A DNA stretch of 64,000 nt from an uncultured delta proteobacterium. GTDB lineage: Bacteria > Desulfobacterota > Desulfobacteria > Desulfobacterales > B30-G6. Position numbers and translations under genes: made by a program. The notes under the pieces are model-generated. The model was given only the letters and a program-made list of their open reading frames with translations, did not search any database and had not been told where the DNA came from. The stretch lies in contig CAWGLD010000001.1 in the NCBI GenBank assembly GCA_963823335.1, positions 832,001 through 896,000 of the forward strand. Direction: 5' to 3'. This document shows, one piece after another, positions 33,520 through 50,536 of this stretch (the first letter of the stretch is position 1; the number at the start of each line of letters is the position of its first letter).

Positions 33520-34770
33520 ATGCAACGTCGTTTCATCCATACAGCAGACATTCACTTGGGAAAAACCTACCGCAACTCTCCCGGGGAAGCGAAGCGTTAC
33601 CAAGATTTTTTTCGATGCCTGTCGGATATTGTAAAAAATGCTGTGCTTGAAAAAGTTGATTTCGTTCTCATCTGCGGAGACTTGTTCCACACCGGACAAA
33701 TCCTGCCCAGGACCTTTGCCAAAACCATTGAAACCCTGCAACCACTTAAAATATCACGTATTCCCTGTATTGCCATCGAAGGCAATCACGACTGGATTCA
33801 CAGACGCAACAACATCTCCTGGATGGAAGCCCTTTCCGAAATGGGTTATATCCGTTTGCTGCGTCCGGCGCGCACCAAAGATGGCGGCTATCAATTCGAC
33901 CCTTTTGATGAAGAGACCGGTATGGGTGGACATGTTGAGATCGACGGCTTGAGTATTTATGGCCTTGGTTATATCGGCACCCAGGCCGGCAGCCATGTCG
34001 AACGCATCTGTAATGCGGTCAACACCGATAACAACCTGCTGCTTTTTCATGTGGGCATCTGGAAGTATTCACCAGTTGAAATTGGCAACATGAAAATTGA
34101 AGAGGCTCATCCCCTGGCCGATAAATTCAGTTATGTCGCCCTCGGACACGGACACAAACCCTATGTGATCGAAACCCCGGACGGAAAGCCTTATGCCTAC
34201 AACCCCGGGGCACCGGAAAGGGTCAACTTCGGTGAAGAAAAATATGACAAGGGATACTATTTTGTCACCTTCGAAGATGGCAATTTTATCCCGGAATTCA
34301 GACGGACCAATCCGCGTCCCATGCTGGTCGAGATAATCAATCTGGACGGTGCTGATGATGCAGATAGAGCCCTTGCCCGATATCGAGAGCAGGTCAAGAA
34401 AAAGCTGTCACTACAGACCGATGAACGTTCGCCATTGCTGGAACTGAAATTGACCGGGCGGATCGGTTTTCATCCCTTCGAGTTAGGACGTGAACGGCTG
34501 AGACTGGCCCTTGAGGATATTGCTTCTCCATTACATGTAGAAATAAAAAACCACCTTTCGCTGGTTGCCCGGACGGGTGGAGAGGAAGTCGTCAAAAAGT
34601 CCCTGGCCGAAATTGAAAACGATGTGCTGCATGAATTGATCGGCACACACAGCCAATACAGCGGTCGTGAAGAAGCCTTGACGCGCCTGTCACTATCGAT
34701 CCGAGATTTGGTCTTGAAGGGTGATGTCGAAGATGACGAACTGCTTGGGCTTCTCCCGGATAAGGATTAA
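33520..34770 (+). CDS. sbcD: SbcD/Mre11 metallophosphoesterase nuclease
   Basis: HTADIHLG, GDLFH, GNHD, FH, ALGHGH, NPG..E. Confidence 0.88.
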   Translation: MQRRFIHTADIHLGKTYRNSPGEAKRYQDFFRCLSDIVKNAVLEKVDFVLICGDLFHTGQILPRTFAKTIETLQPLKISRIPCIAIEGNHDWIHRRNNISWMEALSEMGYIRLLRPARTKDGGYQFDPFDEETGMGGHVEIDGLSIYGLGYIGTQAGSHVERICNAVNTDNNLLLFHVGIWKYSPVEIGNMKIEEAHPLADKFSYVALGHGHKPYVIETPDGKPYAYNPGAPERVNFGEEKYDKGYYFVTFEDGNFIPEFRRTNPRPMLVEIINLDGADDADRALARYREQVKKKLSLQTDERSPLLELKLTGRIGFHPFELGRERLRLALEDIASPLHVEIKNHLSLVARTGGEEVVKKSLAEIENDVLHELIGTHSQYSGREEALTRLSLSIRDLVLKGDVEDDELLGLLPDKD

Positions 34771-34773
34771 TCC

Positions 34774-37209
34774 ATGCAGATTATTTCTATCTCTTTGAAA
34801 AACATAAAATCCCACCGCGAAAAAGAATTGCATTTTGTCAACGGGATCAATGTGCTTTCCGGTGACAACGGGGTCGGTAAAAGCACAATCTTTGAGGCCA
34901 TTGGTTACGCTTTGTTTGGCGTTGATGCCCGTGACTTTGTGGGCAACATCGAGCGTTTCATTACCATCGGTGCCAAAAAGGGCGAAATTGCCGTGACCTT
35001 TGCAACGGATGAGAGTGAAACATATCGGGTTTCCCGCAGTGTTGGCGCCGGATCCAAATGGCTGTTGGCCCGGGAGATCAGCGGAGCGTTTGAAGTTGAG
35101 GACCATGCCGGAGCCCCGGAAACGGAAGCCCGGATCAAGGAACTGCTCAAACTCGATAGCGGCCGATCCCTGGCTGATCAATATAAACTCGTGATCGGTC
35201 CCTTTCAGAATGAATTTCTGGGTCCTTTTGTACTCAAGCAGCCCACCAAACGCCAGGTTGCCTTTGATGAGATTCTTGGCATCGATGCCTGGCGTAAAAC
35301 GTTCAAAGGTACCAGCTCCCTGCAGGCGTCCATCAAGAACAAGATTGAAATAATGAACGTGGAGATAGAAGGCAAACAGGAACAGGTAACCCCCCTGCCC
35401 CAACGAAAAAAAGAACTGTCCGCTTTGGTCAAAAGCGCCGGTGCCCAGCAGAAGGTTTTATCAAAAAGGAAAAAGACCTTAACGGATACAGAAAAACAGC
35501 TTACCAAACTCGATGGACAGGAAAAAACGACAAATACCGTCAAGTCCGATATCCAGGTGCTTGATAATCGTATCCGTGATGGCGAAGGGAAAATTGCCGA
35601 CCAGAAAAAACGGGTTAAAGAGGCCGAGGCGGCCCTTGAAATCCTTGAAAAGAGTCGGGCAGGCAAGGAAGCCTTTGATGCGGCTGAAGCTGATCTTAAG
35701 TCCTTACGGAATCAGGAAATGCAGAGAAGAAAGATCGAAAAGGATATCAATGCGCTGGACAAAGAAAGTGCCCGACTCTCCCAGGCATTACAACACGAAA
35801 TCCGTGAAGTCGGGAAAACCGAAAAACAACTTGCAGAAGAAGAACGTCAGCTTAAAGGTGATCAGAAAACACTGACAGCGGATGACAGCATTACCAAAAC
35901 AGCGGCCCGGCTACCGGAGTTAAGAAAGGATGAAGAAAACCTCCTCTCCGCCAAGGGTCTTCTCGAAGGAAGACGGGCAGGTCTGCTGGAAGGGAAAGAA
36001 AAACTTGCCCAAGGCAACTGCCCCTTTTTCAAGGAAGCGTGCCAGAACATTGCCGCTAAAGCCCCACGCGATGTTTTCAGTTCCAAGGTTGACGATCTGG
36101 ACAAAGAAAGCCTTGATCTGGACAACCGTTTGCGTGGTCTTAGCCGGGAGATCACAGCGGCTGATAAAGCCCAGCATGAATTAGATTCGATTAAGGTCAG
36201 AACACAGGAGATTGAAAAACAACTCATCGTCCTATCCAGGAAGCGAAAGGACAACGATACCCGCAAGCAAGCGCTTCAGAAGACTCAAAAGCAACAGGAG
36301 GCAGCTGAAAAAAAGGCCTTAGCCCGGAAGAAAGACCTGAAGACGTACCATAAGCTGGATACGGAAATAGCAAGGATCGAAAAATTGCGGACGGAGCACC
36401 AGCTTGCCCGGGATGCTTTCCTTGCCAATCAAAAAGATGCCAAGGATCTGAACAATCGACGCAAATCCCTGGAAAAGATGTTGAAGCTATTTGATGAACG
36501 AATACAGTTCCTTGCTGCTAAGCAACAAGCGCTTGGTACGTTGGAAAAAGAATATGATTCAAGACACCACGCAGAGGTTCGCCTGATAAAAGAGCAACTG
36601 CTTGCAGAACTTGCCACAATAACGCAGAAAATGAATGCTCTCGATAAGGATAGAAAGCGCCTCGAAGAAGAGATCAAAAAAATGAAACAGATTAAAGAAG
36701 AGATCAAGACGCGCCTGGCCCAAAAGAGAAGTTTTGAAGACAAAGAAGCGCTGGTCAAATTCTTACGAAACAATATCTTCAACAATGTTTCAGCGCAGCT
36801 CTCAGAACGTTTTCGGGAAGAAATAAGTTTACGGGCCGATATCATTTATCGCAATATCGCCGAAGCCGATGAAGAGCTTCACTGGGGCGATAAATACCAG
36901 ATCGTTCTGAGGGACATGCAGAATGGCGAATTAAGGGAGCGAACCGATGACCAGTTGTCCGGCGGGCAGACCATGAGTGCTGTGGTCGCCCTGCGCCTGG
37001 CCTTGCTGCAGACCATCGGTGCGAGAGTGGCATTTTTTGATGAACCCACATCAAACCTCGATGCCGCCCGCCGAGCCAATCTGGCCAATGCCTTCCGTGC
37101 CATTGATGTGGGACGTGAAGAAGTGACAGAGCATTGGTACGACCAGCTTTTCCTGATCAGTCACGATGTTGCATTTACCGAAGTGACGGATCAGATTATT
37201 TCTCTTTAA
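34774..37209 (+). CDS. sbcC: SbcC/Rad50 SMC-like ATPase
   Basis: NIKSH, GDNGVGKST, Q-loop, long coiled coil, LSGGQ, FFDEPTSNLD, ISH. Confidence 0.9.
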   Translation: MQIISISLKNIKSHREKELHFVNGINVLSGDNGVGKSTIFEAIGYALFGVDARDFVGNIERFITIGAKKGEIAVTFATDESETYRVSRSVGAGSKWLLAREISGAFEVEDHAGAPETEARIKELLKLDSGRSLADQYKLVIGPFQNEFLGPFVLKQPTKRQVAFDEILGIDAWRKTFKGTSSLQASIKNKIEIMNVEIEGKQEQVTPLPQRKKELSALVKSAGAQQKVLSKRKKTLTDTEKQLTKLDGQEKTTNTVKSDIQVLDNRIRDGEGKIADQKKRVKEAEAALEILEKSRAGKEAFDAAEADLKSLRNQEMQRRKIEKDINALDKESARLSQALQHEIREVGKTEKQLAEEERQLKGDQKTLTADDSITKTAARLPELRKDEENLLSAKGLLEGRRAGLLEGKEKLAQGNCPFFKEACQNIAAKAPRDVFSSKVDDLDKESLDLDNRLRGLSREITAADKAQHELDSIKVRTQEIEKQLIVLSRKRKDNDTRKQALQKTQKQQEAAEKKALARKKDLKTYHKLDTEIARIEKLRTEHQLARDAFLANQKDAKDLNNRRKSLEKMLKLFDERIQFLAAKQQALGTLEKEYDSRHHAEVRLIKEQLLAELATITQKMNALDKDRKRLEEEIKKMKQIKEEIKTRLAQKRSFEDKEALVKFLRNNIFNNVSAQLSERFREEISLRADIIYRNIAEADEELHWGDKYQIVLRDMQNGELRERTDDQLSGGQTMSAVVALRLALLQTIGARVAFFDEPTSNLDAARRANLANAFRAIDVGREEVTEHWYDQLFLISHDVAFTEVTDQIISL

Positions 37210-37448: not shown

Positions 37449-37661
37449 ATGAGAGCAGTCGAAATAACACAAGAGCCCATCGAACTCTATAAAATTTTGA
37501 AATTCGAGAATATGGTCAGTAGCGGCGGAGAAGCAAAACATGTAATCTCCCAAGGCCAGGTTGCGGTAAATGGTGTGGTTGAAACCAGAAAACGAAAAAA
37601 GATATTTTCAGGTGATATCGTAGAATTTAAAGATGAAAAACTCCACATAAAAATCAAATGA
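37449..37661 (+). CDS. S4-domain RNA-binding protein (YbcJ/YaaA-like)
   Basis: IELYKILK..SGGEAK..I..G.V.VNG..ETRKRKK..GD.V. Confidence 0.9.
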   Translation: MRAVEITQEPIELYKILKFENMVSSGGEAKHVISQGQVAVNGVVETRKRKKIFSGDIVEFKDEKLHIKIK

Positions 37662-37670
37662 GGTTAAAGC

Positions 37671-37958
37671 ATGAAAAATATTTTTGATGGTAAAAAGACA
37701 GCAAAATTTGGGACTGAAAAAAATCCGGCTACTGTACGCGTACAAACAAAAAAGAGAGCTAAGGAATTAGAATCTGTATTTGAAGAAAACAATTGGAAAT
37801 ATACAATTGAGTTAGATCCGGAGAAACCTGAGGATACCAACGACCTGGAAATATTATTGAATCCACAAAAAACAAGAATTGCCGAAAAGAAAATAGGACG
37901 CAATGTAACCTGCCCATGCGGAAGCGGGAAAAAGCATAAAAAGTGCTGTGGCAAATAA
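37671..37958 (+). CDS. SEC-C motif protein
   Basis: C-terminal [15 protein letters not shown]. Confidence 0.85.
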
Positions 37959-38043
37959 GGGGCAGTATCACGCAAGCTGCCTGAAATAACAATTAAACCA
38001 TATTGTTCTTCAGTCTCGTATTGACAAATTTGGCGGATCAAAC

Positions 38044-39108
38044 ATGGATTCATTAAAAATTGCGGTTATTCCAGGAGATGGAATCGGGAAGGAAGTCATC
38101 CCTGAGGGTATCCGTGCCCTGGAAGCAGCCGGAAACAAGCATGATGTCCATTTTGAGTGGACTGAATTTGACTGGTCCTGTGAGACCTATCATAAAACTG
38201 GACGCATGATGCCCGAAGACGGTATCCAACAGCTCAAGCATTTCGATGCCATCTACCTGGGTGCCGTTGGTTTTCCCGGCGTACCCGATCACATCTCGCT
38301 GTGGGGGCTGCTGCTCCCCATCAGAAGGGCCTTTGACCAGTATGTCAATCTACGCCCGGTCAGGTTGTTCGATGGCGTACCTTGCCCACTGGTCGGTAAA
38401 AAGCCGGGTGATATAGATTTCTATGTGGTACGAGAGAATGTAGAAGGCGAATATTCCACGGTGGGGGGTATTCAGTATGAAGGGACAGATCACGAGGTCG
38501 TATCCCAATTGAGCCTGTTTACCCGTCGAGGCACCGACCGTATCATCAAATTCGCATTCGAGCTTGCCCAAAGCCGACCGGCCCGACATTTGACATCAGC
38601 AACCAAATCAAATGGTATCTTCCACACCATGCCCTACTGGGACAGCCGCGTCGAAGAGATCTCCAGAACCCATCCAGATGTCACGGTCGATAAATACCAC
38701 ATTGATATCTTAACGGCAAATTTTGTGCGCATGCCCGAACATTTCGATGTCGTGGTGGGTTCCAATCTGTTTGGGGACATTCTTTCCGATTTAGGCCCCG
38801 CCTGTACCGGCACCATCGCCATTGCCCCGTCAGCAAACATCAACCCCGAAAAAACGTTTCCATCCATGTTCGAACCCGTGCATGGCTCCGCTCCTGATAT
38901 TGCCGGCCGGGGAATTGCCAATCCCATTGGAACCATCTGGGCCGGCGCCATGATGATGCAGCACCTGGGATATCCCATGCTGCACGATACGTTGATTATA
39001 GCAATTGAAACCGTATTGCGTGATCCCAAGAACCTGACGCCTGACATGGGTGGCAATGCCGGTACCCGCGAACTTGGCCAGGCCGTGGTGGCGGTTATGG
39101 CCGGATAG
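38044..39108 (+). CDS. Tartrate dehydrogenase / D-malate dehydrogenase (decarboxylating)
   Basis: IPGDGIGKEV, VPDHISLWG, RENVEGEY, TKSNG..MPYWD, NLFGDILSD, FEPVHGSAPDIAG. Confidence 0.9.
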   Translation: MDSLKIAVIPGDGIGKEVIPEGIRALEAAGNKHDVHFEWTEFDWSCETYHKTGRMMPEDGIQQLKHFDAIYLGAVGFPGVPDHISLWGLLLPIRRAFDQYVNLRPVRLFDGVPCPLVGKKPGDIDFYVVRENVEGEYSTVGGIQYEGTDHEVVSQLSLFTRRGTDRIIKFAFELAQSRPARHLTSATKSNGIFHTMPYWDSRVEEISRTHPDVTVDKYHIDILTANFVRMPEHFDVVVGSNLFGDILSDLGPACTGTIAIAPSANINPEKTFPSMFEPVHGSAPDIAGRGIANPIGTIWAGAMMMQHLGYPMLHDTLIIAIETVLRDPKNLTPDMGGNAGTRELGQAVVAVMAG

Positions 39109-39286
39109 GATTAAAGCCGTCAATCGAACAAGCGGTTTTGTTTTTGTCGATATCGGTATTTTTCTGGCAACGTCCTAAAACCATTGAATGTATAACACAC
39201 CTGTTCATCTGAAATGTTGATTGACATTTGGTCGATTTCATGTTTTCTGACAAAATCTATTAAAATCCGATTACAAAGGAAGCTTT

Positions 39287-41245
39287 ATGAACAGCTTTTT
39301 TCTGTCGATCGTGCTAATCTGCGGTGGCGGTCTTGCCACCCTTTTTATTTGGCGAAAATTTATTTTGATGAAGACCGTTGCTGTCTTGACCATCAGTATC
39401 GGATGCGTCATTGGATTGTTCGATGCCCTGGTCAAACTGCTGAATCCAGGGCTTTATGGCGTGTCTTTTGAATACCTGAAACTATTCTCCCTTTCTTTTC
39501 ATATCGATGCACTGTCGGCCTTTTTTCTGGTCGCAATTTATGCCGTTTCTCTGCTTGCCGTAATTTACAGCTTTCACTACCTCAACAAACCCGAAAAGGC
39601 CCTCCGCGCGGCATCCGGCTATCTGTTCTTCTCCCTGTTGATCGTTTCCATGGCGCTGGTGGTGACCGCTGCCAATATGATCACCTTTATGCTTTCCTGG
39701 GAAATCATGTCCCTGTCATCATTTTTTCTGGTGATATATGACCACGAGTCTGCCGAAAACCGTAAAGCCGGATATCTATATTTTGTCTTTTCCCATGTGG
39801 GGGCCATGTTCATCCTGGCGGCTTTCGGTATTCTGTATGGGCACAGTGGCAGCTTTTTGTTCTCTTCCGGAGGTTCCATCCCTGATTCGGCAAAATTTCT
39901 GGTGCTGATACTCTCTTTTGTCGGATTCGGATCAAAGGCCGGTGTGTTTCCGTTTCATGTCTGGTTACCCCATGCCCACCCGGCCGCCCCGAGCCACATC
40001 TCCGCCGTAATGTCCGGCGTGATGATAAAGACAGGTATTTACGGCATTGTACGCCTGTATACCTCTCTGGGCCTTCATACGCCGTTATTTGGTGAAATCG
40101 TACTGGTTGCGGGAATGATTTCCGGTGTCCTGGGTGTTGTCTATGCCCTCGGCCAGCATGATATCAAACGACTATTGGCCTACCATAGTGTTGAAAATAT
40201 AGGAATTATCCTGATCGGGATCGGGATCGGCATGCTGGGTGTATCCTCCGGCAACCCGATCATGGCCGTCCTGGGGTTTTCCGGAGGCCTGCTGCATGTG
40301 TTGAATCACGCGATTTTCAAATCATTGCTGTTCATGGGCGCCGGCGTGGTAATCCAGAAAACAGGTACGCGCACCATCGATATGCTGGGCGGGTTGCTCA
40401 AAAAGATGAAAATTACCGGTCTCACATTCCTGGTGGGCTCTCTGGCTATTTCCGGTCTTCCGCCGTTTAACGGATTTGTAAGCGAATTTTTTATTTATTT
40501 AGGTGGATTTAGAGGCGTGGCCCTGGACAAGACAGCCTTTGTGCTGTGCATCATGGCCATTATCAGCCTGGCCATTATCGGTGGCTTGGCCCTGGCCTGC
40601 TTCACCAAGGTCGTGGGAGTGGTTTTCCAGGGAGAACCCAGGAGTTCGTGTGCCATGGCAGTGGATGAAAAAGGACCGGCTATGCTGGCACCCATGCTGA
40701 TTTTAGCCGCCAGCTGTGTCATCATCGGGGTATTTCCTCAGATGTTTATTGCCCTGGCGGTAAAGGCTGTTCCAGTCTCCGGGCTGGGGTATGGTCGCAT
40801 TCCCATGGAACCGTTTATGCAGATGACGGGAAATATCACCCTGGCCGCCACCATTTTCTTTGTCATTCTGCTGGCGCTTATCGCCCTGCGCCTGGTTTTC
40901 TACCGCACTAAAACCATTGGAAGCGCAGGAACCTGGGGATGCGGTTTTACACAACCAACCACCAAGATGCAGTATACCGGTACGTCCTACGCAGCTTCGA
41001 TTCTGGCATTTTTCAAGCCGGTCGCCCCTCTGCAAGAAGATCATCCCGCTATTCAGGGCCGATTTCCCCAAAAAACCCATTACCGCAGCCATGTGGATGA
41101 CATAGCCGAACGTCACATGGCGCGTGTGGTCGTCGACCCGGTTCTGTGGCTCTTCGACAGATTGCGCTGGATGCAGCATGGAGACATCCATTTGTATATC
41201 GGTTACATATTACTGGCCATTGTCGTGCTTTTATTTTTCGTTTAA
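39287..41245 (+). CDS. Ehr/Hyf antiporter-like membrane subunit (HyfB-like)
   Basis: WEIMSL, KAGVFPFHVWLPHAHPAAPSH.SA.MSG, KRLLAYHSVEN, NHAIFK, W.CG. Confidence 0.9.
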   Translation: MNSFFLSIVLICGGGLATLFIWRKFILMKTVAVLTISIGCVIGLFDALVKLLNPGLYGVSFEYLKLFSLSFHIDALSAFFLVAIYAVSLLAVIYSFHYLNKPEKALRAASGYLFFSLLIVSMALVVTAANMITFMLSWEIMSLSSFFLVIYDHESAENRKAGYLYFVFSHVGAMFILAAFGILYGHSGSFLFSSGGSIPDSAKFLVLILSFVGFGSKAGVFPFHVWLPHAHPAAPSHISAVMSGVMIKTGIYGIVRLYTSLGLHTPLFGEIVLVAGMISGVLGVVYALGQHDIKRLLAYHSVENIGIILIGIGIGMLGVSSGNPIMAVLGFSGGLLHVLNHAIFKSLLFMGAGVVIQKTGTRTIDMLGGLLKKMKITGLTFLVGSLAISGLPPFNGFVSEFFIYLGGFRGVALDKTAFVLCIMAIISLAIIGGLALACFTKVVGVVFQGEPRSSCAMAVDEKGPAMLAPMLILAASCVIIGVFPQMFIALAVKAVPVSGLGYGRIPMEPFMQMTGNITLAATIFFVILLALIALRLVFYRTKTIGSAGTWGCGFTQPTTKMQYTGTSYAASILAFFKPVAPLQEDHPAIQGRFPQKTHYRSHVDDIAERHMARVVVDPVLWLFDRLRWMQHGDIHLYIGYILLAIVVLLFFV

Positions 41246-41250
41246 ATGAG

Positions 41251-42180
41251 ATGATTGTTATGATTAAATCCATTCTATTCTGGGTTCTGGCCATACTTCT
41301 GGCACCGTTCTTTTCAGCGGTTATTCTGAAGGTGAAGGCTTTTTTCGGCGGGAAAAAGGGTCCTCCCCTGCTGATCAATTACTACACCCTTGCCAAATTA
41401 TTCAAAAAAGGTTCGGTTTACAGCACCAGCACAACCTTCATCTTCAAACTGGGACCCATGGTTTCGCTGGGAGCTGCTGTCACAGTCCTGTTGTTTCTTC
41501 CTTTTGCTGGCCACCCACCGGTCTTTTCGTTCCAGGGTGATCTTCTTTTCATTTTGTACCTGCTGGGCCTGGGCCGTTTTTTCACCATTGCAGCTGCCAT
41601 GGACACGGCCTCGCCATTCGAAGGGATGGGAGCCGCCCGGGAAGCTTATTTCCCGATTATCTGCGAAGCTACGTTGTTCATGATACTGATTCTGTTCTAT
41701 ATTTTGACCGGCGAATTACGTCTGGCAGCCTACTTTACAGGTAACCAGCCTTTTGGATTGTGGCAGGTGGCCGGGTCGCCCATGTTGTTTGTGGTAATTG
41801 CCTTTTTCGTTATTCTGCTGGCGGAAAACTCACGCGTGCCGGTGGATGATCCAGCCACTCATCTGGAATTGACCATGATTCATGAAGTGATGGTGCTGGA
41901 TCACAGTGGACCCGACTTTGGATTTATCGAGCTGGGATCCTTCTGCAAGCTCTTTTTCTACGCATCCATTGTCGCCAGGCTGATTATACCCATTGAATCC
42001 GGCTTTCTGGCACTGAACCTCTGTCTGTTCACAGCTTCCCTGCTGGTTGTGTATATGGCTGTGGGTGTCATGGAATCGGTCATGGCCCGTTACCGGATGG
42101 ACAGGGTTCCCAAGTTCCTCCTGACCTCTTTTGCCCTGGCCTTTTTTGCAACCGTTATTACACTGGAGTTTTTAAAATGA
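41251..42180 (+). CDS. NuoH/HyfC-like membrane subunit
   Basis: GPP..YY.L.KL..K, F.GMGA.RE, ENSRVPVDDP.THLELTMIHE. Confidence 0.9.
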   Translation: MIVMIKSILFWVLAILLAPFFSAVILKVKAFFGGKKGPPLLINYYTLAKLFKKGSVYSTSTTFIFKLGPMVSLGAAVTVLLFLPFAGHPPVFSFQGDLLFILYLLGLGRFFTIAAAMDTASPFEGMGAAREAYFPIICEATLFMILILFYILTGELRLAAYFTGNQPFGLWQVAGSPMLFVVIAFFVILLAENSRVPVDDPATHLELTMIHEVMVLDHSGPDFGFIELGSFCKLFFYASIVARLIIPIESGFLALNLCLFTASLLVVYMAVGVMESVMARYRMDRVPKFLLTSFALAFFATVITLEFLK

Positions 42181-42818
42181 GCATCCCGGTCGACATGACA
42201 TTGTCCCTTGTCCTGCTTTCGGTCCTGTTTTCGTTTGGTTCCAGCCGTCTGCCGGGGCTTATCAAGGTTCTGGCATTTCAGGGAATCGTCGTATCAATCG
42301 TCCCGCTGATAATCGGGCACGACATGACCACCGGCGGCGTTCTGTTTACGCTTGTCACCTTGACCATTCGTGGCATCGTCATTCCTTTTTGCATATATTT
42401 TGCCATTAAAAAAGTTGCCATTCGCAGAGAAGTGGAACCCATCGTCGGCTATCACGCCTCAGTTCTGGCAGGCCTGGGACTGATCGTGGCGGCCATGGTT
42501 GTCAGCCACAGATTCAATGCCCCGTCCATCAGTGCCAGCGTGCTGCTGCTACCCACCGCCATCGCCCTTCTGGTGGCAGGTATGTTTCTGCTGATGGCGC
42601 GGCGGAATGCCATCGCCATGGTGCTGGGCTATATCATGATGGAAAACGGCATTTACCTGGTGGGAACGACCTTTTCGGTGCGCGCCCTTCACATCGTGGA
42701 ATTCGGAATTCTACTGGACGTACTGGCCGGTGTCATGATCATGGCCGTTATCCTTCAGAATATCAAACAGACATTTGATGATGTGGATACCGCCTTGCTC
42801 AGAACATTAAAGGAATAG
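42177..42818 (+). CDS. HyfE-like membrane subunit
   Basis: Hydrophobic; ENG, E.G.LLD. Confidence 0.88.
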   Translation: MSIPVDMTLSLVLLSVLFSFGSSRLPGLIKVLAFQGIVVSIVPLIIGHDMTTGGVLFTLVTLTIRGIVIPFCIYFAIKKVAIRREVEPIVGYHASVLAGLGLIVAAMVVSHRFNAPSISASVLLLPTAIALLVAGMFLLMARRNAIAMVLGYIMMENGIYLVGTTFSVRALHIVEFGILLDVLAGVMIMAVILQNIKQTFDDVDTALLRTLKE

Positions 42819-42829
42819 GTGTTTGATTC

Positions 42830-44251
42830 ATGGTTGAAATCGTTTTTCTAGCCCCGTTTGTAACCGGCGTGATTGCCTTTTTCATGCCCCGCACTCTGGG
42901 ACGCTCATTGCTGGTCTTTACCGGAGCACTTCATCTGTTGCTCTCCGTCCTGCTTTGGATACGGCAGCCCGAACCACTGTTCAAATCCTATTTTGCCATC
43001 GCCCCGGAAGGAATGCTCTCTTTGCTGGTGATATCACTGCTGTTTTTTCTGATATCCATTTACACCATTGGCTATCTCAAGGTATCCGACATCAAGTCCG
43101 AGAATATATTTACCGGTTCCATGCTGTTGTTCCTGTCCACCATGACCATGGTGACCCTTTCCGATCATATCATGGTCATGTGGATCGCCATTGAAGCGAC
43201 GACCCTTGCCAGTGCACCGCTGATCTACACCCACCGCACTTCCGTCTCTCTAGAAGCTACCTGGAAGTATGTTCTGATCTGTTCTGTGGGCATTGCCATG
43301 GCGCTCTTGGGCTCGGTTCTGATCACCATTTCAATGGATGTTGGCAAGGTCGATGCACCGGTCTCCTTTTCTGCGCTTACGGCTGTTGCAACCCGTCTTG
43401 ATCCCATGTGGTTGAAGGCAGGTTTCGCTTTTATTCTGGTAGGATACGGCACGAAGATGGGCCTGGCGCCCATGCACACCTGGCTGCCCGATGCCCACAG
43501 CGAAGCGCCCAGCCCGGCATCGGCGCTTTTGTCCGGTGTACTGCTCAACTGCGCATATCTCGGAATCTTCAAAACCAATAAGATCATGCTGGCAGCCGGC
43601 CTGGGCAATTTTTCCGGTCCTATCCTTATGGGGTTCGGTCTGATTTCGATTCTGGCGGCAGGCACCTTTATTCTCAAACAGACAGAATACAAACGTCTGC
43701 TGGCATATTCGAGTATCGAAAATATGGGAATCATTGCCTTTGGAACCGGTGTTGGCGGACTGGGTGCCTATGGTGCCATGCTCTGCCTGATCCACCACAG
43801 TCTGATCAAATCTTCGCTGTTTCTGACTTCCGGAAATATTCTGCTGGGCTATGGCAGCCGACGGATTGACAAGACCGGCGACCTGGTTAACCGGATGCCA
43901 CGGACCTTTATCGCTTTTTTCGGTGGATTTGCGGCAATCGCGGGCTTACCCCCCTTCGGGCTTTTTATCGGCGAGCTGTTCGTCATCCTGGGAGCCTTTA
44001 AGGCGGGTCACTATATAGGCGTCACCGTTCTGGTGGTCAGTCTGTGTGCCATCTTTGCCGGTTTTGCCAACCAGGTTATGAAAATTTCTTTCAACACCTC
44101 AGAAGCCACGATCGGTTTGGTGGAAAAGGGCAATCTGGTCTGGCCCCAGTATGTGCTGCTATTAACCTCTCTGGTCTTGTGTTTCTGGATCCCGGACTCC
44201 CTGTACCAGACAATAATGAATGCGGTAACTTCCGTCAGTGGAGGTTTTTAA
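42830..44251 (+). CDS. HyfF-like antiporter membrane subunit
   Basis: WIAIEATTL, EATWKY..CSVGI, GYGTKMGLAPMHTWLPDAHSEAP, KRLLAYSS.E. Confidence 0.9.
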   Translation: MVEIVFLAPFVTGVIAFFMPRTLGRSLLVFTGALHLLLSVLLWIRQPEPLFKSYFAIAPEGMLSLLVISLLFFLISIYTIGYLKVSDIKSENIFTGSMLLFLSTMTMVTLSDHIMVMWIAIEATTLASAPLIYTHRTSVSLEATWKYVLICSVGIAMALLGSVLITISMDVGKVDAPVSFSALTAVATRLDPMWLKAGFAFILVGYGTKMGLAPMHTWLPDAHSEAPSPASALLSGVLLNCAYLGIFKTNKIMLAAGLGNFSGPILMGFGLISILAAGTFILKQTEYKRLLAYSSIENMGIIAFGTGVGGLGAYGAMLCLIHHSLIKSSLFLTSGNILLGYGSRRIDKTGDLVNRMPRTFIAFFGGFAAIAGLPPFGLFIGELFVILGAFKAGHYIGVTVLVVSLCAIFAGFANQVMKISFNTSEATIGLVEKGNLVWPQYVLLLTSLVLCFWIPDSLYQTIMNAVTSVSGGF

Positions 44252-45759
44252 TGAACACGACCTTTTTGGAGATTTCAAATGGTGTCGCCCTCCCCACAGA
44301 ACGGATCCCTCACCTTGCGTTTGACACCTTTCGCCAGGAAGCCCTGGATATTGTAAATAAAGGAGGGAAGGTCGTTCACTATTTTGCCTACCTTCAAGGC
44401 GACACCGTCAGACTGATGGCGATACTGCGCAAGGATTCACTGCTTGTGGCCGGCTGCGATGCACCCGACACCTATTCCGCCATGAGCAGCCAGTGCGAGC
44501 CCTTCCACATGTTTGAACGGGAGATCGCCGAGCAGTTCGGTATCCGGCCCGAGGGTCATCCCTGGTTGAAAATGGTTCGTTATCATCCCAATTATATGAA
44601 CAGGACCGACGTCTTCGATAATAATTACGCCGATGATATTCCCGGAAATTATGCCTACTACCGTGTGGAAGGTCAGGAGATTCATGAAGTGGCAGTCGGT
44701 CCCGTACACGCCGGGGTGATCGAGCCGGGGCATTTTCGATTCAACTGTATCGGTGAACGGGTGCTGAACCTGGAGATCCAGCTGGGGTATCAGCACCGGG
44801 GTATTGAAACGCTTATTCCACAGGTAGAAGCCAAACGCTTACCCCTGCTGACCGAAAGCATCGCCGGTGACACAACGGTGGGCCACTGCCTCTGTATGGC
44901 CCAGGCCGTGGAGGCCTTTTCCGCAGTCAAACCAGATAGCGGGGCGCATATCATCCGCACCATCGCCTTGGAACTTGAACGTATTCAGAATCATATCGGC
45001 GATCTGGGTGCATTGAGCGGGGACGTTGCTTTTTTGCCGCCCATGAACTACTGCGGCCGTATGCGTGGCGATTTTTTGAATATGTCACTACTGCTTTGCG
45101 GCAATCGGTTCAGCAAAGGATTTATCCGCCCGGGTGGCGTGCTTTTCACCATGGATGACGAAATCCGGAGCATTTTGACCGAGCGCATCATTGAAATCAA
45201 ACCGCAGGTCAAGCACGTGATCGATCTGCTCTTTTCGACATCCAGCGTGCGTTCACGTTTTGAAGATTGTGGCACGGTCAGCCAATCGGATGCGGAAAAC
45301 CTGGGTTTGGTAGGGCCTGCCGGCCGGGCTTGTGGCATTCCTTACGATGTCAGGCGCTGTTTTCCCAGCGAACATTATTCCGAACTCGATATTCCGGAAA
45401 ATGCCGAACACAGCGGTGATGTTTTTGCCCGGGCGAAAATCAGAGCGGACGAGACCCTGCAGTCCATCGATCTTATCCTGTCTCTGCTGAACGACCCGGT
45501 GGAAACGAATTGCACGAAGCCGGGGAATCTGTCTCTGGCACCCGATTCCTTTGTCGTAACCCTGAACGAGGCCTGGCGGGGTGAAGTTTCCCATTGTGTT
45601 TTAACAGACACGACAGGCAAAATCAGACGCTACAAGATCAAGGACCCCTCGTTTCACAACTGGAACGGCCTCTCCATGTCTCTGCGGGATACGGAAATTT
45701 CAGATTTTCCGCTCAACAACAAAAGTTACAATTTATCGTATTGTGGGTTTGATCTATAG
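44251..45759 (+). CDS. Ehr large subunit (NuoC/D-HyfG-like) lacking Ni-binding CxxC motifs
   Basis: FERE..E.FG, VGPVHAGVIEPGHFRF, LELERI, E..RG, DPSF.NW; L1 site reads ESIAGD, C-terminus NLSYCGFDL. Confidence 0.88.
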   Translation: MNTTFLEISNGVALPTERIPHLAFDTFRQEALDIVNKGGKVVHYFAYLQGDTVRLMAILRKDSLLVAGCDAPDTYSAMSSQCEPFHMFEREIAEQFGIRPEGHPWLKMVRYHPNYMNRTDVFDNNYADDIPGNYAYYRVEGQEIHEVAVGPVHAGVIEPGHFRFNCIGERVLNLEIQLGYQHRGIETLIPQVEAKRLPLLTESIAGDTTVGHCLCMAQAVEAFSAVKPDSGAHIIRTIALELERIQNHIGDLGALSGDVAFLPPMNYCGRMRGDFLNMSLLLCGNRFSKGFIRPGGVLFTMDDEIRSILTERIIEIKPQVKHVIDLLFSTSSVRSRFEDCGTVSQSDAENLGLVGPAGRACGIPYDVRRCFPSEHYSELDIPENAEHSGDVFARAKIRADETLQSIDLILSLLNDPVETNCTKPGNLSLAPDSFVVTLNEAWRGEVSHCVLTDTTGKIRRYKIKDPSFHNWNGLSMSLRDTEISDFPLNNKSYNLSYCGFDL

Positions 45760-45769
45760 GGAAATCAAT

Positions 45770-46513
45770 ATGCTTAACACGCTTAAAAACAGATTCGAAC
45801 AGGGTTACAGAACCACAAAATATCCGCAGGAAAAAATCGAACTGTGGAAGCGCTACCGCGGGCGCCCACTGATCAATAAAGACGCCCGGGATGACCTGGT
45901 CAAAACCTGTGCAGCGGCCTGCCCTCAGGATGCCATCGACACACAACATAAATTGATCGACATGGGACGCTGTGTATTCTGTGGAACCTGTGAACGCGTT
46001 TCCAAAGGAAAATTCGTCGCCTTTAGCCAGGACTTCGAGATCTCCGTGTCCGAGAAAGAACACCTGTTAACGGACGGATCTCTTCCCGAATTGGCCGCAC
46101 ATGCCCGGCAGCATTTCAAAAAGCTTTTCGGCCGATCCCTGCAGCTGCGCCAGGTATCAGCAGCCGGCTGCAACGCCTGCGAAGCGGATCTCAATGTTCT
46201 GGCGACACCCTTTTTCGACCTGGCCCGCTTTGGGATCAACTTCGTGGCCTCCCCCCGCCATGCAGACGGCATCGTCGTGACCGGTCCTGTCTCCCGCAAC
46301 ATGAAAACGGCTCTGTTTCAAACCTACGAAGCCGTAGCCGACCCCAAGGTCGTCATCGCCGTGGGCAGTTGTACCCTGACCGGCGGACCTTTCAGGGGCA
46401 GCCCCGAAATCACCGAAGGGCTGGACAGCCTCCTGCCGGTGGATCTTTATATCCCGGGATGCCCGCCCCACCCGCTGACCAATCTGCACGCCCTGCTGAC
46501 ATTTTTCAAATAA
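45770..46513 (+). CDS. Ehr small subunit: ferredoxin-like N-terminus fused to NuoB/HyfI domain
   Basis: CAAACP, CVFCGTC, GCNACE, SPRHAD..VTG, GSC, IPGCPP. Confidence 0.9.
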   Translation: MLNTLKNRFEQGYRTTKYPQEKIELWKRYRGRPLINKDARDDLVKTCAAACPQDAIDTQHKLIDMGRCVFCGTCERVSKGKFVAFSQDFEISVSEKEHLLTDGSLPELAAHARQHFKKLFGRSLQLRQVSAAGCNACEADLNVLATPFFDLARFGINFVASPRHADGIVVTGPVSRNMKTALFQTYEAVADPKVVIAVGSCTLTGGPFRGSPEITEGLDSLLPVDLYIPGCPPHPLTNLHALLTFFK

Positions 46514-46515
46514 TT

Positions 46516-47937
46516 TTACGGGCGGATGATGATGGTCGGATACAGCCCTTCCTTTTCTCCCCTTGGATAAGGCTGGATCGTGTTAAAGGAAATGTTTTGA
46601 TTTCTCTGGGCATGGCCCTTGTTGGAGTGGCCATTAAAAAAAGCACCGTTGGCTTCCAGGATATGCTGAATTCGCTCCTTGAAGGCCGTAACGAATTCGG
46701 CACCGCTGCCTTCAAAAATCATCTCCCCCTTTGAAAAGCGGCTATCTATTTTTGAGAAGGCCTTCAGGGGCATGCTGTTGCGCTCCAGGTCCTTTTCATC
46801 CGTCACCAGTCCCCAGACCAAATGACCGGCTGGAATCTTCAGCGGCTTGCGGATATCGATGATCGTATGGGGCATGACGATGCTCTCCTGGCCGATGGTC
46901 AGTCGTGACTCCGGTCGCCCCCGCAGAAAGCAGTTAAATCCAACAAAAACATCCTTTCCCAGAGCCGCTTCGATAATCTTGGCGCCATGGGCGGTAATGT
47001 CATTCCCCTCCAGGCGTGAGTTGATGATATAGCTATGCTCCTGGGCGTTGGCGCCTTTGCCGAGCCAGGCATTCTGGAGAAAGGCCCGCTGTGAGACCAG
47101 TACATTTTCACTGATATGCGTTTTGGGTTTGATTACGGCAAAGCGGTCAAGCGATGCGCTACGGGGAACAGACACGGAAGGTTCCAGATTGACCACGTTA
47201 AAAACCCGCTGAAAAGCTTCTTTGCGATCTTCCACAAAATCGATAAAGACACCCTGGGGAGAACTGCCGGCAGAAAAATAGATGTAATTGTTCAGGCGTT
47301 GGAGAGGGAACTGGTACAGGAAGTTGAACTTTTCAGGGTTGCGTACCCACACCGTCCCGGGTTCTATGTTCAGGTGGCTCACTTCCCCGGCTTGAATGTA
47401 TGAAAATGTTCCGATGAGACAGTCCTGTATGGTGGTGAGATCAACGGTTGAAAAGGGTCCCAGAAAACATCCATCCGAGGGAGAGCCGTGAATATTGGCA
47501 TAGTGGGTGGAGATGGTATCCCTGATAAAAAACTTCTCCAGTGTTTCCGGATCGTGGGAAAAATTGTGAACCAAGGTCTTGATCAGAAAGCTGTCATTTA
47601 TCTCGATCTCTTCATCCTCAGCCACCGGAATTTCAAATTCCTGGTATTGGAACAGATCCGCTTTCTGTTTGAGTTCGTCCCCCCGGACATCACTCTTATA
47701 AAGGAGGGAATTGGTCACGCTGCATTTTCCCAGAAAGTAACTGCCGGACAAATTGGAGTGCCTGAACTCAAAATTCAGGGGGTGGTGGGGCGTAATACCG
47801 TAAAATGCATAAAACTTCGTCATCTGGTTCGGCGGGATAAGATTCCGTACCAACGGATTGACATCATATTCAAGCTCCCGCAAATTGATGTTGACGCGCT
47901 GGATAATCCTGTCCAAAAGTTTTTCGAGTTCTTTCAT
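46516..47937 (-). CDS. Left-handed beta-helix protein with tandem gamma-carbonic-anhydrase-like domains
   Basis: VRGD, LVH, THYANIHG in domain 1; NAQE, TAHG, VFVGFN in domain 2. Confidence 0.65.
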   Translation of the reverse strand: MKELEKLLDRIIQRVNINLRELEYDVNPLVRNLIPPNQMTKFYAFYGITPHHPLNFEFRHSNLSGSYFLGKCSVTNSLLYKSDVRGDELKQKADLFQYQEFEIPVAEDEEIEINDSFLIKTLVHNFSHDPETLEKFFIRDTISTHYANIHGSPSDGCFLGPFSTVDLTTIQDCLIGTFSYIQAGEVSHLNIEPGTVWVRNPEKFNFLYQFPLQRLNNYIYFSAGSSPQGVFIDFVEDRKEAFQRVFNVVNLEPSVSVPRSASLDRFAVIKPKTHISENVLVSQRAFLQNAWLGKGANAQEHSYIINSRLEGNDITAHGAKIIEAALGKDVFVGFNCFLRGRPESRLTIGQESIVMPHTIIDIRKPLKIPAGHLVWGLVTDEKDLERNSMPLKAFSKIDSRFSKGEMIFEGSGAEFVTAFKERIQHILEANGAFFNGHSNKGHAQRNQNISFNTIQPYPRGEKEGLYPTIIIRP

Positions 47938-47950
47938 GGCATATCCTTAT

Positions 47951-48511
47951 CTATTCGGTTGCTTCGACTTCTTTCATGACATGGAAGGTTGCAGCAAACA
48001 CATCCGACATTCTCAGTACACCCACAATTTTCTTTTCTTTCGTCACCAGCAATGACAGATGGTATCCCGTAATCAGCTGGTGAACAGCAGTCTCGAGGGA
48101 GGTTTCTTCATTGATGTACTCACCCTCGGAAGGGGTTTGCATAAATTCTTCGACCTTGAGCTTGGCCGCTGTTGCATAGATGTCCTTGTTTGGAGGGATT
48201 GTCTGGCGGTACTGTTCCTGGCGTAGTGCAATGGACTTTGAACTAAAGCCGAATTTTCTGATATTCTTTATCCTTTCAGTTTTTTCATCCTTCGGTTCAA
48301 GGGATCTCATGAAATCCAACTGGCTTAGTTTCCCGACCACCTGTTTGTTGTTGTCCAGAACCAGCACGGCACGGTGGGAATATTGGGTGTGGCAATATTC
48401 CTCCTGGGCTTTTTCCAATGCAACCACGGCCTCGGACAGTGTCGATCCAACGGTTACGGTTGCATATTCTGAAATCGGAACCATCACGTCCTTCACACGA
48501 AATTGTTTCAT
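47951..48511 (-). CDS. CBS-pair domain protein
   Basis: VKDVMVP, VLVLD..VVG.LS..D, V.EFM, LLV..IVGVL..SD. Confidence 0.88.
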   Translation of the reverse strand: MKQFRVKDVMVPISEYATVTVGSTLSEAVVALEKAQEEYCHTQYSHRAVLVLDNNKQVVGKLSQLDFMRSLEPKDEKTERIKNIRKFGFSSKSIALRQEQYRQTIPPNKDIYATAAKLKVEEFMQTPSEGEYINEETSLETAVHQLITGYHLSLLVTKEKKIVGVLRMSDVFAATFHVMKEVEATE

Positions 48512-48613
48512 TTCTCCTCCAGGGAAGTATGGATATTACCTATTACCTGAACCTAACATGAGCACCTGAAGAACCCCGCAGCGAGTCACGGGGTCAGCAC
48601 TCGCTGTTGCAGT

Positions 48614-49000
48614 TCAACATTCGATTTCGATTTTAACTGCCGGTGTGTCCTCCATAACATGAATGGTCCTTGACATTTCAATCTTGTCCGGGTTGTCTGT
48701 GCTCTGTGAACGGAGCGCCGCTAGAAGCTCTTCCTGTTCCAGCAAAAATGACTGCCCGTGACGGTCGGTTGCCACTATCCCGCCCACCATGCCGTGATTG
48801 AAGGGAAACGCACCGAAATGTTTGGTAATCAGAATGATGGGGAAGCCCTGATTTTCATCAGAACAGAAGGCGCGGGAAGGCATGATCCTGCCTTTTTCAA
48901 AACCATATGATCTGCACAGGTTATACAATCGTGGAACAAAGACGCTGAAGCGCATCATCTTGTCGCTGATCTTAAAATCACCCATCAGACATTGCATCAT
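48614..49000 (-). pseudogene. Probable internally deleted LCIB-like (beta-carbonic anhydrase-type) gene
   Basis: AFCSDE..KHFGAFPFNHGMVGG resembles LCIB CxD..FG..F..GG.GG, then abrupt switch after DRHG to a short tail; later His/Cys ligands absent. Confidence 0.4.
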
Positions 49001-49374
49001 AAATTTCCTCTTCTTGGTCCCTTATGTTCAATACTTGTACATTCGGTGGCGAAAAACAGGATCCTCAAAACCGGCATCATCGCGGTTTTGTCGATGGGCT
49101 GCACCAGCAGCAGAAAAAATTTGGCGGCCATGACCAGAAGACAGGCTTCCTCCATGTTCAAACTTTGTATCGTCCAGGCGCCTGGTCAGGCCGAATTTGG
49201 TAGACACCCTTCCGATCATGACTCATACAAAGATAAAGTGTTTATTTTAACCTTTCGAGTTTTAGCTGTCAATCATAAACAGACGCTTCCCGGTATTGCC
49301 GTGTTGCTTTGGGCCTGATGAGAAGAATTGAAATTGGATCTTGTAATACGCTTAAGAGCGTCAAGGGATGTTGG

Positions 49375-50253
49375 TTAAGCCTTGAGTCGGTTCAACGCCA
49401 CCACGCTGCCAAAGATCAAAAGACCGCCGACCCAGAACCTCAGCGTTACGGGATCCCCAAGGAAGACAATGCCCACGATACCGGTAAAGATGACCTCGCT
49501 GGACATGAACACGCCGCCCTCCCACCCTTTGCAGTAGAAAAAGCCCTGGTTCATGAGGAGCTGGGCCGTCAGGGATGTAAAGATGATACCCAGAACCATG
49601 ACCCACTCCAACGGAGTGCCGGGCAGCATCGGCGTCATGATGAATTTGGGCGCGGTGACCAGGGTGCCCATGGTGCAGAAGTAGAGGTAGATGATGACCG
49701 GTCCGTTTTTTTCCCGCAGGCTGCGGATCAGTGTTACGGTGAGACCTGCGAACACCGCACCAAACAAGGCCATGGCCTGCCCAAAAAAAGTTCCGCCAAG
49801 TCTGAAATCGAACAGCGCGCCCACGCCCACAAGCACCAGGACAATACAGGCGATCTCAAGCTTACCGATTTTTTCACCATAGATCCGGTAGGAAAAAATC
49901 GCTGAAAACGCCGGAAACGAGTAAAAAATAACCAGCGCCGTGGACAATGGTAGCAGTTTGAGAGCGGTGATAAGGGAGATGAAAGCCACGGAACCCACGC
50001 ACCCCCGGATAATCAATAGTCGTGTATTGTTCCCAAGAAAGGGGTTGTGGTGACGACCGAAAATAAGGATAATCATGACCAGGCCCCCGAAAAAACGGAA
50101 AAACCCGATGTGCCAGACGGTGAACACCGGATTCAGGGTCTTGACGATCAGATTGAGCAGGGTGAACAAAAGCGCAGCCGACAGCATGAACAGCGGTCCT
50201 GCAAGGGCCGCGTCCATCTGAACCAGACCCCCTTTCTTTTTGGGTGTATCCAT
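49375..50253 (-). CDS. DMT/EamA-family transporter
   Basis: About 10 TM segments, FFRF, RG..G, P.F..I duplicated EamA pattern. Confidence 0.88.
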   Translation of the reverse strand: MDTPKKKGGLVQMDAALAGPLFMLSAALLFTLLNLIVKTLNPVFTVWHIGFFRFFGGLVMIILIFGRHHNPFLGNNTRLLIIRGCVGSVAFISLITALKLLPLSTALVIFYSFPAFSAIFSYRIYGEKIGKLEIACIVLVLVGVGALFDFRLGGTFFGQAMALFGAVFAGLTVTLIRSLREKNGPVIIYLYFCTMGTLVTAPKFIMTPMLPGTPLEWVMVLGIIFTSLTAQLLMNQGFFYCKGWEGGVFMSSEVIFTGIVGIVFLGDPVTLRFWVGGLLIFGSVVALNRLKA

Positions 50254-50536
50254 TTCAACTCCTTAATATTATTAAATTTTTTACAAGTTGTCATAAATAG
50301 GATTCTGACCACGGGATCTGTCAAAAACATATAATAGTTAAAAGGAAATATTCTTAATAAGTCCTTGAAACTTGACACGTCAACCAGTATTTAACAAACG
50401 TCCAAATTATCGGTTCTCTATTACAATACAATACCATTTCCACAAGATAGTTATTCTACCGGTCTACGGGGCCGGGCCAGGCTAACCAACAGTATTTAAA
50501 GAATATTTAATCAAAAACAATCCTTATATCAACTCG

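Follow-up and report, generated by a model that had tools for sequence, protein, structure and literature searches.

What does a membrane complex of the complex I type do when its catalytic subunit no longer carries a nickel site, and with which proteins does it work? We address this question for a six-gene operon at 39287-46513 (+) of a 64,000-nucleotide stretch of DNA from an uncultured member of the Desulfobacterales (contig CAWGLD010000001.1, positions 832,001 to 896,000 of the forward strand; hereafter the window). The operon encodes an energy-converting hydrogenase-related complex (Ehr), a name reportedly coined by Marreiros et al. in 2013. Function and partner of Ehr complexes are described as unknown, and in Margulisbacteria formate dehydrogenase has been proposed as the partner (PMC6349859). 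In the window, the operon runs tail to tail into an opposite gene run composed of a remnant of an LCIB-like carbonic anhydrase gene, a gene for a protein with a CBS pair and a gene for a 473-residue protein with two left-handed beta-helix parts (LbH473). An earlier note on this DNA had taken the arrangement for a candidate energy-coupled module for CO2 or bicarbonate. We find that Ehr is linked, across many genomes, to both of these families with carbonic anhydrase folds. We read Ehr, tentatively and with somewhat more doubt than conviction, as an ion pump driven by redox chemistry and linked in function to carbonic anhydrase-type proteins of the cytoplasm and to anion symporters, and in this way coupled to CO2 and bicarbonate.

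Ehr beside two carbonic anhydrase-like families

We compared by script the positions of LbH473 and of the Ehr large subunit, EhrL (orthologues at 57% identity or more), in 201 genomes of the window's order, taken in one even draw. Below, G000 is the window's own genome, other G numbers are sampled genomes, and L numbers are related loci or contigs. LbH473 occurs in 106 of the 201 genomes and an EhrL orthologue in 38, one more genome having EhrL fragments only. Nearly all genomes with EhrL also carry LbH473 (37 of the 38): it lies on the same contig in 25, within 8 kb in 24 and within 3.5 kb in 19; this sample and the phylum sample used below include kin, so that their counts are non-independent. 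EhrL and LbH473 fall on different contigs in 12 genomes, mostly fragmented assemblies, and at least three of these (G179, G113 and G193) look truly unlinked. The gene order itself is variable: the two units are convergent in the window, whereas elsewhere LbH473 follows Ehr on the same strand (G126, G016, G062), precedes it on the same strand (G168, G058, G199, G002) or diverges from it (G074).

The LbH473 loci themselves give a similar picture. From 595 confirmed stretches we kept the best 80, all at least 71% identical, so that near relatives are over-represented; genes in such loci were called as longest open reading frames and labelled by tblastn with the window's proteins, visibility being bounded by contig ends. 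At least one Ehr subunit is found in 45 of the 80 loci, and in 23 of the 35 that have 9 kb or more on each side. The arrangement is convergent in 40 of the 45, mostly with 9-420 nucleotides between gene ends. On a FastTree phylogeny of 121 LbH473 sequences, 99 of them scored for Ehr adjacency, this adjacency changes state at least 16 times, so Ehr and LbH473 are not one inherited block.

The earlier note had conceded that the adjacency could be coincidental. In the window's genome taken singly, the convergence of the two units would fit a chance encounter, as would the lack of conservation of two further neighbours, a tartrate dehydrogenase gene and an EamA gene. By our own estimate, though, two loci in a 5-Mb genome would come within 8 kb of each other by chance in about 0.15 of 37 genomes, against the 24 observed, and the locus sets contradict a chance origin as well. 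The linkage is far beyond chance, and we regard coincidence as extremely improbable even for the window's genome. It is a feature of this order: in a phylum sample of 401 genomes, 40 carry LbH473, and Ehr was found within 5.5 kb of LbH473 in none of 20 LbH473 loci outside the order (from 32 genomes carrying LbH473). Many genomes have LbH473 and no Ehr, or Ehr and no LbH473, so LbH473 is not an obligatory Ehr subunit.

The second family, LCIB-like proteins, is rarer and reaches further. Within the order, an LCIB-like gene is present in 11 of the 201 genomes, and the seven best matches are all in genomes with Ehr; two of them are the remnants in G000 and G159, the other five full-length or partial genes. 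In G062 a single strand carries, in order, the LCIB-like gene, a 266-residue open reading frame, CBS, a symporter of the DASS type, EhrABCDLS, CBS and LbH473; the CBS-DASS-CBS units of G152 and G181 each enclose a distant LCIB-like gene (28% identity). Outside the order, where EhrL was counted at 54% identity or more, 10 genomes have EhrL. Three of them also have an LCIB-like gene, always directly upstream of EhrA on the same strand (gaps of 221 nucleotides in G320 and 137 in G542; the placement in G409 is from coordinates only). G320 and G409 gave no match to LbH473 and none to AprA (E-value of 1e-100 or below).

We then scanned metagenome contigs, mostly short ones, with an alignment of the family and kept the best 80 of 389 confirmed LCIB-like stretches. 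Ehr or Ehr-like genes lie beside the LCIB-like gene in six of the 80, and in three of the 16 loci whose contigs reach 5 kb or more downstream and 2 kb or more upstream. The LCIB-like gene precedes EhrA by 10 nucleotides in L181; it follows a distant Ehr-like ABCDLS set by 40 nucleotides in L212, and EhrS by 17 nucleotides in L226, where a convergent LbH473 comes next. In L227, a CBS-DASS-CBS-LCIB-CBS-LbH473 array faces Ehr; L231 and L232 are the remaining two. The large subunits encoded beside these genes also lack the nickel ligands, down to 35% identity. Altogether, intact LCIB-like genes abut Ehr in at least five separate settings, including two families outside the order in which no LbH473 accompanies Ehr.

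LCIB-like genes also stand next to other ion-translocating machines. Antiporter-like genes adjoin one in L232, and weak SulP matches lie near it in about ten loci. At L217:9217-16143, a single strand encodes a beta-type carbonic anhydrase (Pro_CA), an LCIB-like protein, DabB (Proton_antipo_M) and DabA (PF10070). At L251:6847-11734, the genes for the B and D subunits of a V/A-type ATPase flank an LCIB-like gene that retains all of Cys/Asp/His/Cys. This repeated position of a carbonic anhydrase-type enzyme beside ion-translocating machines is the strongest support for the idea put forward in the earlier note. The neighbourhood survey proposed there likewise left that idea standing: LbH473 is enriched within 8 kb of Ehr, and LCIB-like genes abut it.

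The proteins of the locus

All six Ehr genes have Pfam or NCBIfam matches (open reading frame listing and profile searches), and their products are homologous to HyfB, C, E, F, G and I, or NuoL, H, J-K, M-N, D and B (Table 1). EhrA matches the NCBIfam model of hydrogenase 4 subunit B (3.4e-173) and EhrD that of subunit F (5e-100), both under the model cut-offs. The EhrB reading frame opens at 41146; its likely start is the in-frame ATG at 41251, directly past the EhrA stop, and the orthologues align from about residue 4 on. EhrS is a fusion, with a NuoI/HyfH-like part in its first ~110 residues (HyfH/NuoI-type NCBIfam matches at 10-114, Pfam Fer4_7 at 55-86) and a NuoB/HycG-like part in its last ~115 (NCBIfam NuoB over cut-off, Pfam Oxidored_q6 8.9e-28 at 143-252). 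The EhrS stop codon TAA at 46511-46513 is followed by TT and then, at 46516-18, by the reverse-strand stop of the LbH473 gene, which confirms the 2-nucleotide gap read in the earlier note.

We aligned the large and small subunits to HycE and HycG of E. coli K-12. At what we take to be the Ni-Fe ligand positions of HycE, EhrL has AGDT in place of CGIC and LSYCG in place of PCYSC, with no cysteine in register; the replacements are A, T, S and G. The same loss is seen in five of five Ehr large subunits and in four further ones (the window's and eight others, in HycE alignments). Because the four Ni-Fe cysteines are lost from EhrL, the description of the complex as a nickel-less Ehr is correct. 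EhrS keeps the four cysteines of the HycG proximal cluster, and with its Fe-S ligands retained the complex appears still redox-active. Ehr large subunits down to 35% identity (window 44251-45759, L170, L174, L212 and L226) have (A/S)GDT(T/S)(V/I)(G/C)H at the place of the Ni-Fe cysteines and end C-terminally in NLSY(C/A)G(F/N)DL. These replacement stretches are conserved; the Ni-Fe site is remodelled and not merely decayed. A second EhrL-like group, at 43-51% identity, is widespread in the order and the phylum (for example in G019, G101, G190, G219 and G240); two of its genes lie 6 kb from LbH473 (G174, G184).

The CBS gene is the immediate upstream neighbour of LbH473 in 71 of the 80 related loci and 31 of the 35 well-flanked ones: the two are a fixed gene pair. 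LbH473 belongs to the family of PDB 3C8V, a full-length homologue (E-value 7.3e-159 over residues 1-473) from Desulfovibrio desulfuricans G20 deposited by a structural-genomics effort as a putative acetyltransferase; our literature search turned up no functional paper on 3C8V, only protein-design papers that mention it. Its Pfam Hexapep_loop match (PF18776, 49.8 bits) exceeds the cut-off of 31.5, and there are more than 2,200 relatives, the named ones from Desulfobacterota. An AlphaFold2 model, built from 21 sequences and used for Foldseek ranking only, has a mean pLDDT of 60 and an unreliable N-terminal half. After 3C8V, it retrieves gamma-class carbonic anhydrase chains (Cam, CcmM), gamma-type subunits of plant complex I and acyltransferases, all weakly.

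In the earlier note the 473-residue protein was called similar to gamma-carbonic anhydrases. For the C-terminal helix (residues 241-359) this homology stands: it aligns with E. coli YrdA and CaiE with an hhalign probability of 94% and an E-value of 1.2e-7. These two served as alignment partners instead of the weak matches (E-value 7e-6) that are all the PaaY model finds in the window's genome. The helix retains an Arg, an Asn-x-Gln-Asp/Glu motif and one His, H317, equivalent to H91 of YrdA. It lacks a conserved zinc triad, and canonical gamma-carbonic anhydrase membership of this helix was rejected, two of the three His ligands being absent from all, or all but one, of 121 sequences. The N-terminal helix contains a CcmM-like motif (residues 136-186), where H145 and H150 fall on the HxxxxH pair; profile comparison with hhalign gives a shifted and weak alternative (probability 18%). 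Six histidines (H124, H150, H188, H317, H357 and H442) occur in 121 of 121 sequences and H128 in 120. Of these, H124, H128 and H188 are unassigned, and the conserved histidines may make up another site. The window's genome, 93.9% complete, has no Pro_CA (PF00484) and no alpha-carbonic anhydrase (PF00194) match at an E-value of 0.001 or below. Should the organism possess any carbonic anhydrase, LbH473 would be the sole candidate found.

One could instead suppose that LbH473 is an acyl- or acetyltransferase, as annotated, or a thioesterase, and that it clusters with Ehr through a shared stress or energy regulon with no joint biochemical task. The deposition of 3C8V as an acetyltransferase fits such co-regulation, as do profile matches of LbH473 to the acyltransferases GlmU and LpxD, the frequent occurrence of LbH473, Ehr and LCIB-like genes on their own, and neighbourhoods rich in two-component regulators, Usp and PPDK-like proteins. 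It would leave unaccounted for that the adjacency survives at least four rearranged gene orders, mostly with 9-420 nucleotides between gene ends, that two unrelated carbonic anhydrase folds converge on Ehr, and that no acyl-CoA-related gene recurs around LbH473. We judge mere co-regulation rather unlikely.

The LCIB-like gene of the window is dead. Residues 3-82 and 65-126 of the remnant match 9-88 and 320-381 of P0122, a 383-residue LCIB_C_CA protein (BLASTP), and it scores 12.6 bits against a cut-off of 25 for Pfam LCIB_C_CA (PF18599). When 16 full-length or longer relatives were scanned with the same model, eight passed, six fell under the cut-off and two gave no match. The remnant keeps the first Cys-x-Asp, and the columns of H104 and of the second cysteine (C131) are lost; the Cys/Asp/His/Cys set, presumably the metal site as in beta-carbonic anhydrase and LCIB structures, is kept in 14 of 14 full-length copies. 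In sister species, the place of the remnant holds a full-length gene (L051, L055), fragments (L053, L054) or nothing (L052), and the gene is decaying in the window's clade. As a carbonic anhydrase partner of Ehr, the LCIB-like gene proposed in the earlier note fares well in those other genomes where it is intact, and not in the window, where both the His and the second Cys are missing.

Table 1. Features of the locus, with positions in the window.
Feature	Position	Strand	Description
Tartrate dehydrogenase	38044-39108		TIGR02089 over cut-off; 178 nucleotides upstream of EhrA
EhrA	39287-41245	+	HyfB/NuoL-type antiporter-like membrane subunit, 652 residues; Pfam Proton_antipo_M 6.6e-52 and Proton_antipo_N
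EhrB	41251-42180	+	HyfC/NuoH-like membrane subunit; Pfam NADHdh 7.6e-33
EhrC	42177-42818	+	HyfE-like membrane subunit, 213 residues; NCBIfam hydrogenase 4 membrane subunit 2.8e-21; Pfam Oxidored_q2 1.7e-5
EhrD	42830-44251	+	HyfF/NuoM-N-type antiporter-like subunit, 473 residues; Pfam Proton_antipo_M 3.5e-51
EhrL	44251-45759	+	NuoD/HycE-like large subunit, 502 residues; Pfam Complex1_49kDa 5.5e-36; likely start ATG 44251 (translation)
EhrS	45743-46513	+	Fused NuoI/HyfH-like ferredoxin part and NuoB/HycG-like part, 256 residues
LbH473	46516-47937	-	473 residues, two left-handed beta-helix parts, PDB 3C8V family; related to gamma-carbonic anhydrases
CBS-pair protein	47951-48511	-	186 residues; Pfam CBS, two stretches, 3.8e-12; 13 nucleotides upstream of LbH473
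LCIB/theta-carbonic anhydrase-like remnant	48614-49000	-	128 residues against ~365-383 in full-length proteins; in-frame internal deletion
Sigma-70-like promoter match (11/12)	49244-49272	-	Upstream of the remnant-CBS-LbH473 unit; consensus scan

Other features of the window bear less on Ehr. The decarboxylating tartrate/D-malate dehydrogenase seen in the earlier note does lie just upstream of EhrA. As a part of the module it was rejected, since it recurs in none of 20 and one of 80 related loci (one of the 35 well-flanked ones), and the EamA neighbour recurs only in the window's own clade. Further upstream, at 33520-37209, a Metallophos gene precedes that of an 811-residue SMC/SbcC-like ATPase, an SbcCD-type pair. 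The promoter match is a lead only, as the sigma-70 consensus scan gave one site against 3.5 expected. In four estuary studies, RNA-library contigs match 27-28 of the 30 bins of 37500-50400, with the remnant among the parts covered; such contigs are mute on transcription, strand and level. One of them (run X12) tracks the window up to the EhrS stop (46513) and continues with 255 unlike letters that start T-rich. It may come from a relative with a different downstream neighbour.

Points against a role in CO2 handling and the sulfate alternative

Several observations weigh against the CO2/bicarbonate reading. For chemistry, the gamma-type zinc triad is not conserved in LbH473. Taking H67, H91 and H96 as the YrdA zinc ligands, which is our assumption, one of the three His positions is held in the C-terminal helix: at the place of H67 there is a gap or I305 and at that of H96 I322, and these are His in none and in one of the 121 sequences, respectively. 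On the N-terminal side, in the other helix, H145, equivalent to His117, is His in only 90 of 121, in a weak alignment. The LCIB-like gene is dispensable, being deleted in the window, fragmentary in L053 and L054 and absent from L052. For linkage, the convergence of the Ehr and LbH473 units in the window means that they form separate transcripts. LbH473 occurs in 69 of the 163 genomes of the order that have no close (57% or more) EhrL orthologue. Of the 10 Ehr genomes outside the order, LbH473 is absent from eight, 32 kb away in one and on another contig in one; seven of them have no LCIB-like gene, and no Ehr is seen at 74 of the 80 LCIB-like loci. Lastly, LbH473 tracks AprA, which is found in 36 of the 40 phylum-sample genomes with LbH473 against 143 of the 361 without, a tendency and no test given the kinship among them, and LbH473 also tracks DASS and SulP clusters that have been published as sulfate-uptake loci.

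These anion symporter clusters, the commonest further partners, had no place in the earlier note. By Pfam matches, the neighbour of LbH473 in Ehr-less loci is a CitMHS/Na_sulph_symp (DASS) symporter of ~490 residues, usually flanked by CBS paralogues. Others are a ~705-residue SulP-STAS transporter accompanied by TetR, histidine kinases of the Cache type, single response regulators and a response regulator resembling cytidylate kinase. Among the 35 well-flanked loci, DASS is present in 24, SulP in two and an LCIB-like match in three; outside the order, DASS lies beside LbH473 in seven of 20 loci, among which a PPDK_N/PEP-utilizer protein of ~860 residues is recurrent too. Also recurrent beside LbH473, DASS, CBS or a distant LCIB-like gene is an 850-920-residue protein with PPDK_N and PEP-utilizer domains and no recognised C-terminal domain (L142, L145, L149, L157, L159, L138, L139).

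Clusters described from Desulfosarcina and Desulfobacteraceae contain the DASS, CBS, Cache-kinase, response-regulator, SulP and TetR parts that also surround LbH473. Two are reported for Desulfosarcina variabilis and 26 sulfate reducers (PMC11887813): a 'DASS-type sulfate transporter' cluster of 30.5 kb that includes two-component systems and CBS proteins, and one that combines SulP with TetR. The main text of that paper contains no occurrence of Ehr, Hyf, transferase or carbonic anhydrase. D. alkanivorans and D. widdelii, whose genomes are complete, each have a single close homologue of DASS, and it abuts CBS-LbH473 and Ehr.

The main rival is that the locus serves the energisation or regulation of sulfate uptake. 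Ehr would be a redox-driven pump of Na+ (or H+) feeding Na+-coupled DASS and H+-coupled SulP sulfate symporters, CBS-LbH473 a nucleotide-sensing regulator (ATP, AMP or adenosine 5'-phosphosulfate) or accessory enzyme, and the carbonic anhydrase-like folds would not act on CO2. It draws on the CBS-flanked DASS genes at LbH473 loci inside and outside the order, on the match between the neighbours of Ehr-less LbH473 and the published Desulfosarcina cluster (PMC11887813), on the two complete genomes just named, on the association with AprA, and on DASS and SulP expression that varies with the sulfate level in D. autotrophicum (PMC5840216). It does not explain why an intact LCIB-type carbonic anhydrase recurs beside Ehr, even in G320 and G409, nor the LCIB-DabAB locus of L217. 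That these DASS proteins carry sulfate is, in the cited texts, inferred and not assayed (PMC5840216, PMC11887813), and in the window's genome the DASS-CBS unit is 245 kb and the SulP-TetR unit 440 kb away from the locus. On balance we hold a sulfate role to be possible, if somewhat unlikely. The window's organism is a sulfate/adenosine 5'-phosphosulfate reducer, as its genome carries AprA (TIGR02061, 944.8 bits, over cut-off); the gene is at G000:C1:828531-830429, ~1.6 kb before the first base of the window and ~40 kb from Ehr.

Proposed role and related systems

We now return to the tentative reading of Ehr as an ion pump coupled to CO2 and bicarbonate, and outline how it could work. Ehr would use a low-potential donor to drive the pumping of cations or protons, as expected from its family. 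Its cytoplasmic partners would be carbonic anhydrase-type proteins that interconvert or bind CO2 and bicarbonate, namely an intact LCIB-type enzyme and LbH473, the latter possibly gated by the CBS protein through an adenosyl ligand or nucleotide control. In sulfate-reducing Desulfobacterales, anion symporters coupled to Na+ or H+ (DASS, SulP) may act in concert with this set. The outcome would be a module that couples energy to the handling of inorganic carbon, pH and anions, by analogy with NDH-1 Cup and DabAB. Because the LCIB-type enzyme is inactivated in the window's genome, only CBS-LbH473 can serve there. The idea of the earlier note is supported in part: the links of Ehr to LbH473 and to LCIB-like genes, together with the LCIB-DabAB locus, speak for it, whereas a link to the tartrate dehydrogenase, a working LCIB-type enzyme in this genome, a conserved zinc triad in LbH473 and a need of Ehr for LbH473 outside the order are unsupported.

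A bolder version can be formulated, to which we give little credence. Ehr would be the membrane engine of a third vectorial CO2-hydration system, with the LCIB/theta-type enzyme docked on its nickel-free head or antiporter-like arm, joined in Desulfobacterales by the CBS-gated double helix derived from gamma-carbonic anhydrases; redox-driven ion translocation would then pull CO2 and H2O towards bicarbonate and H+. If so, the system would supply protons and bicarbonate to the proton-consuming cytoplasm of a sulfate reducer, and feed symport or exchange by DASS and SulP.

The cyanobacterial NDH-1MS/MS' complexes with CupA/CupB, and DabAB/MpsAB, are vectorial CO2 hydration systems. They share with the present case a complex I-type antiporter-like module genomically tied to a carbonic anhydrase-type protein. 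In contrast, they use other carbonic anhydrase families (here the LCIB/theta type and a double helix of gamma origin), the NuoD/NuoB-like Fe-S head is retained in Ehr, and the host is an anaerobic sulfate reducer. Among the 14 proteins encoded at 34.8-53 kb of the window, no Pfam match to DabA (PF10070) or to a CupA/ChpY-type subunit was obtained. The resemblance to DabAB and Cup lies in a possible way of working, not in membership.

In plant and protist complex I, too, several gamma-type subunits have incomplete sets of zinc ligands. The gamma-carbonic anhydrase domain of that complex (PDB 7ar8, 8bef, 7ar9) likewise joins a left-handed beta-helix of this class to a complex I-like enzyme. Its fold matches to LbH473 are weak (E-value ~1e-3, TM-score 0.14-0.23), and LbH473 differs from it in having double the length and two helices, and in occurring in many genomes without Ehr. 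Ehr complexes described before likewise have six subunits related to group-4 hydrogenases and complex I, and a large subunit without Ni-Fe cysteines (PMC6349859); the partner proposed in Margulisbacteria is formate dehydrogenase, whereas here CBS-LbH473, LCIB-like genes and anion symporters adjoin Ehr. We found no paper that reports these partners of Ehr, or links of LCIB to hydrogenases, antiporters or DabA, in a search that under-covers subscription journals.

The link of Ehr to two unrelated families with carbonic anhydrase folds and to anion symporters is robust to rearrangement and provides concrete partner candidates for this complex. The neighbourhood offers a first testable role for Ehr, in the handling of CO2, bicarbonate or another anion, and cultured Desulfosarcina strains carry the full cluster, with DASS-CBS, CBS-LbH473 and Ehr adjoining one another in D. 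alkanivorans PL12 and D. widdelii PP31. Should the sulfate reading be true, Ehr would be the missing energiser of sulfate uptake. Should the CO2 reading be true, Ehr would represent a third complex I-type machine for CO2 hydration, in anaerobes that mineralise much of the carbon of marine sediments.

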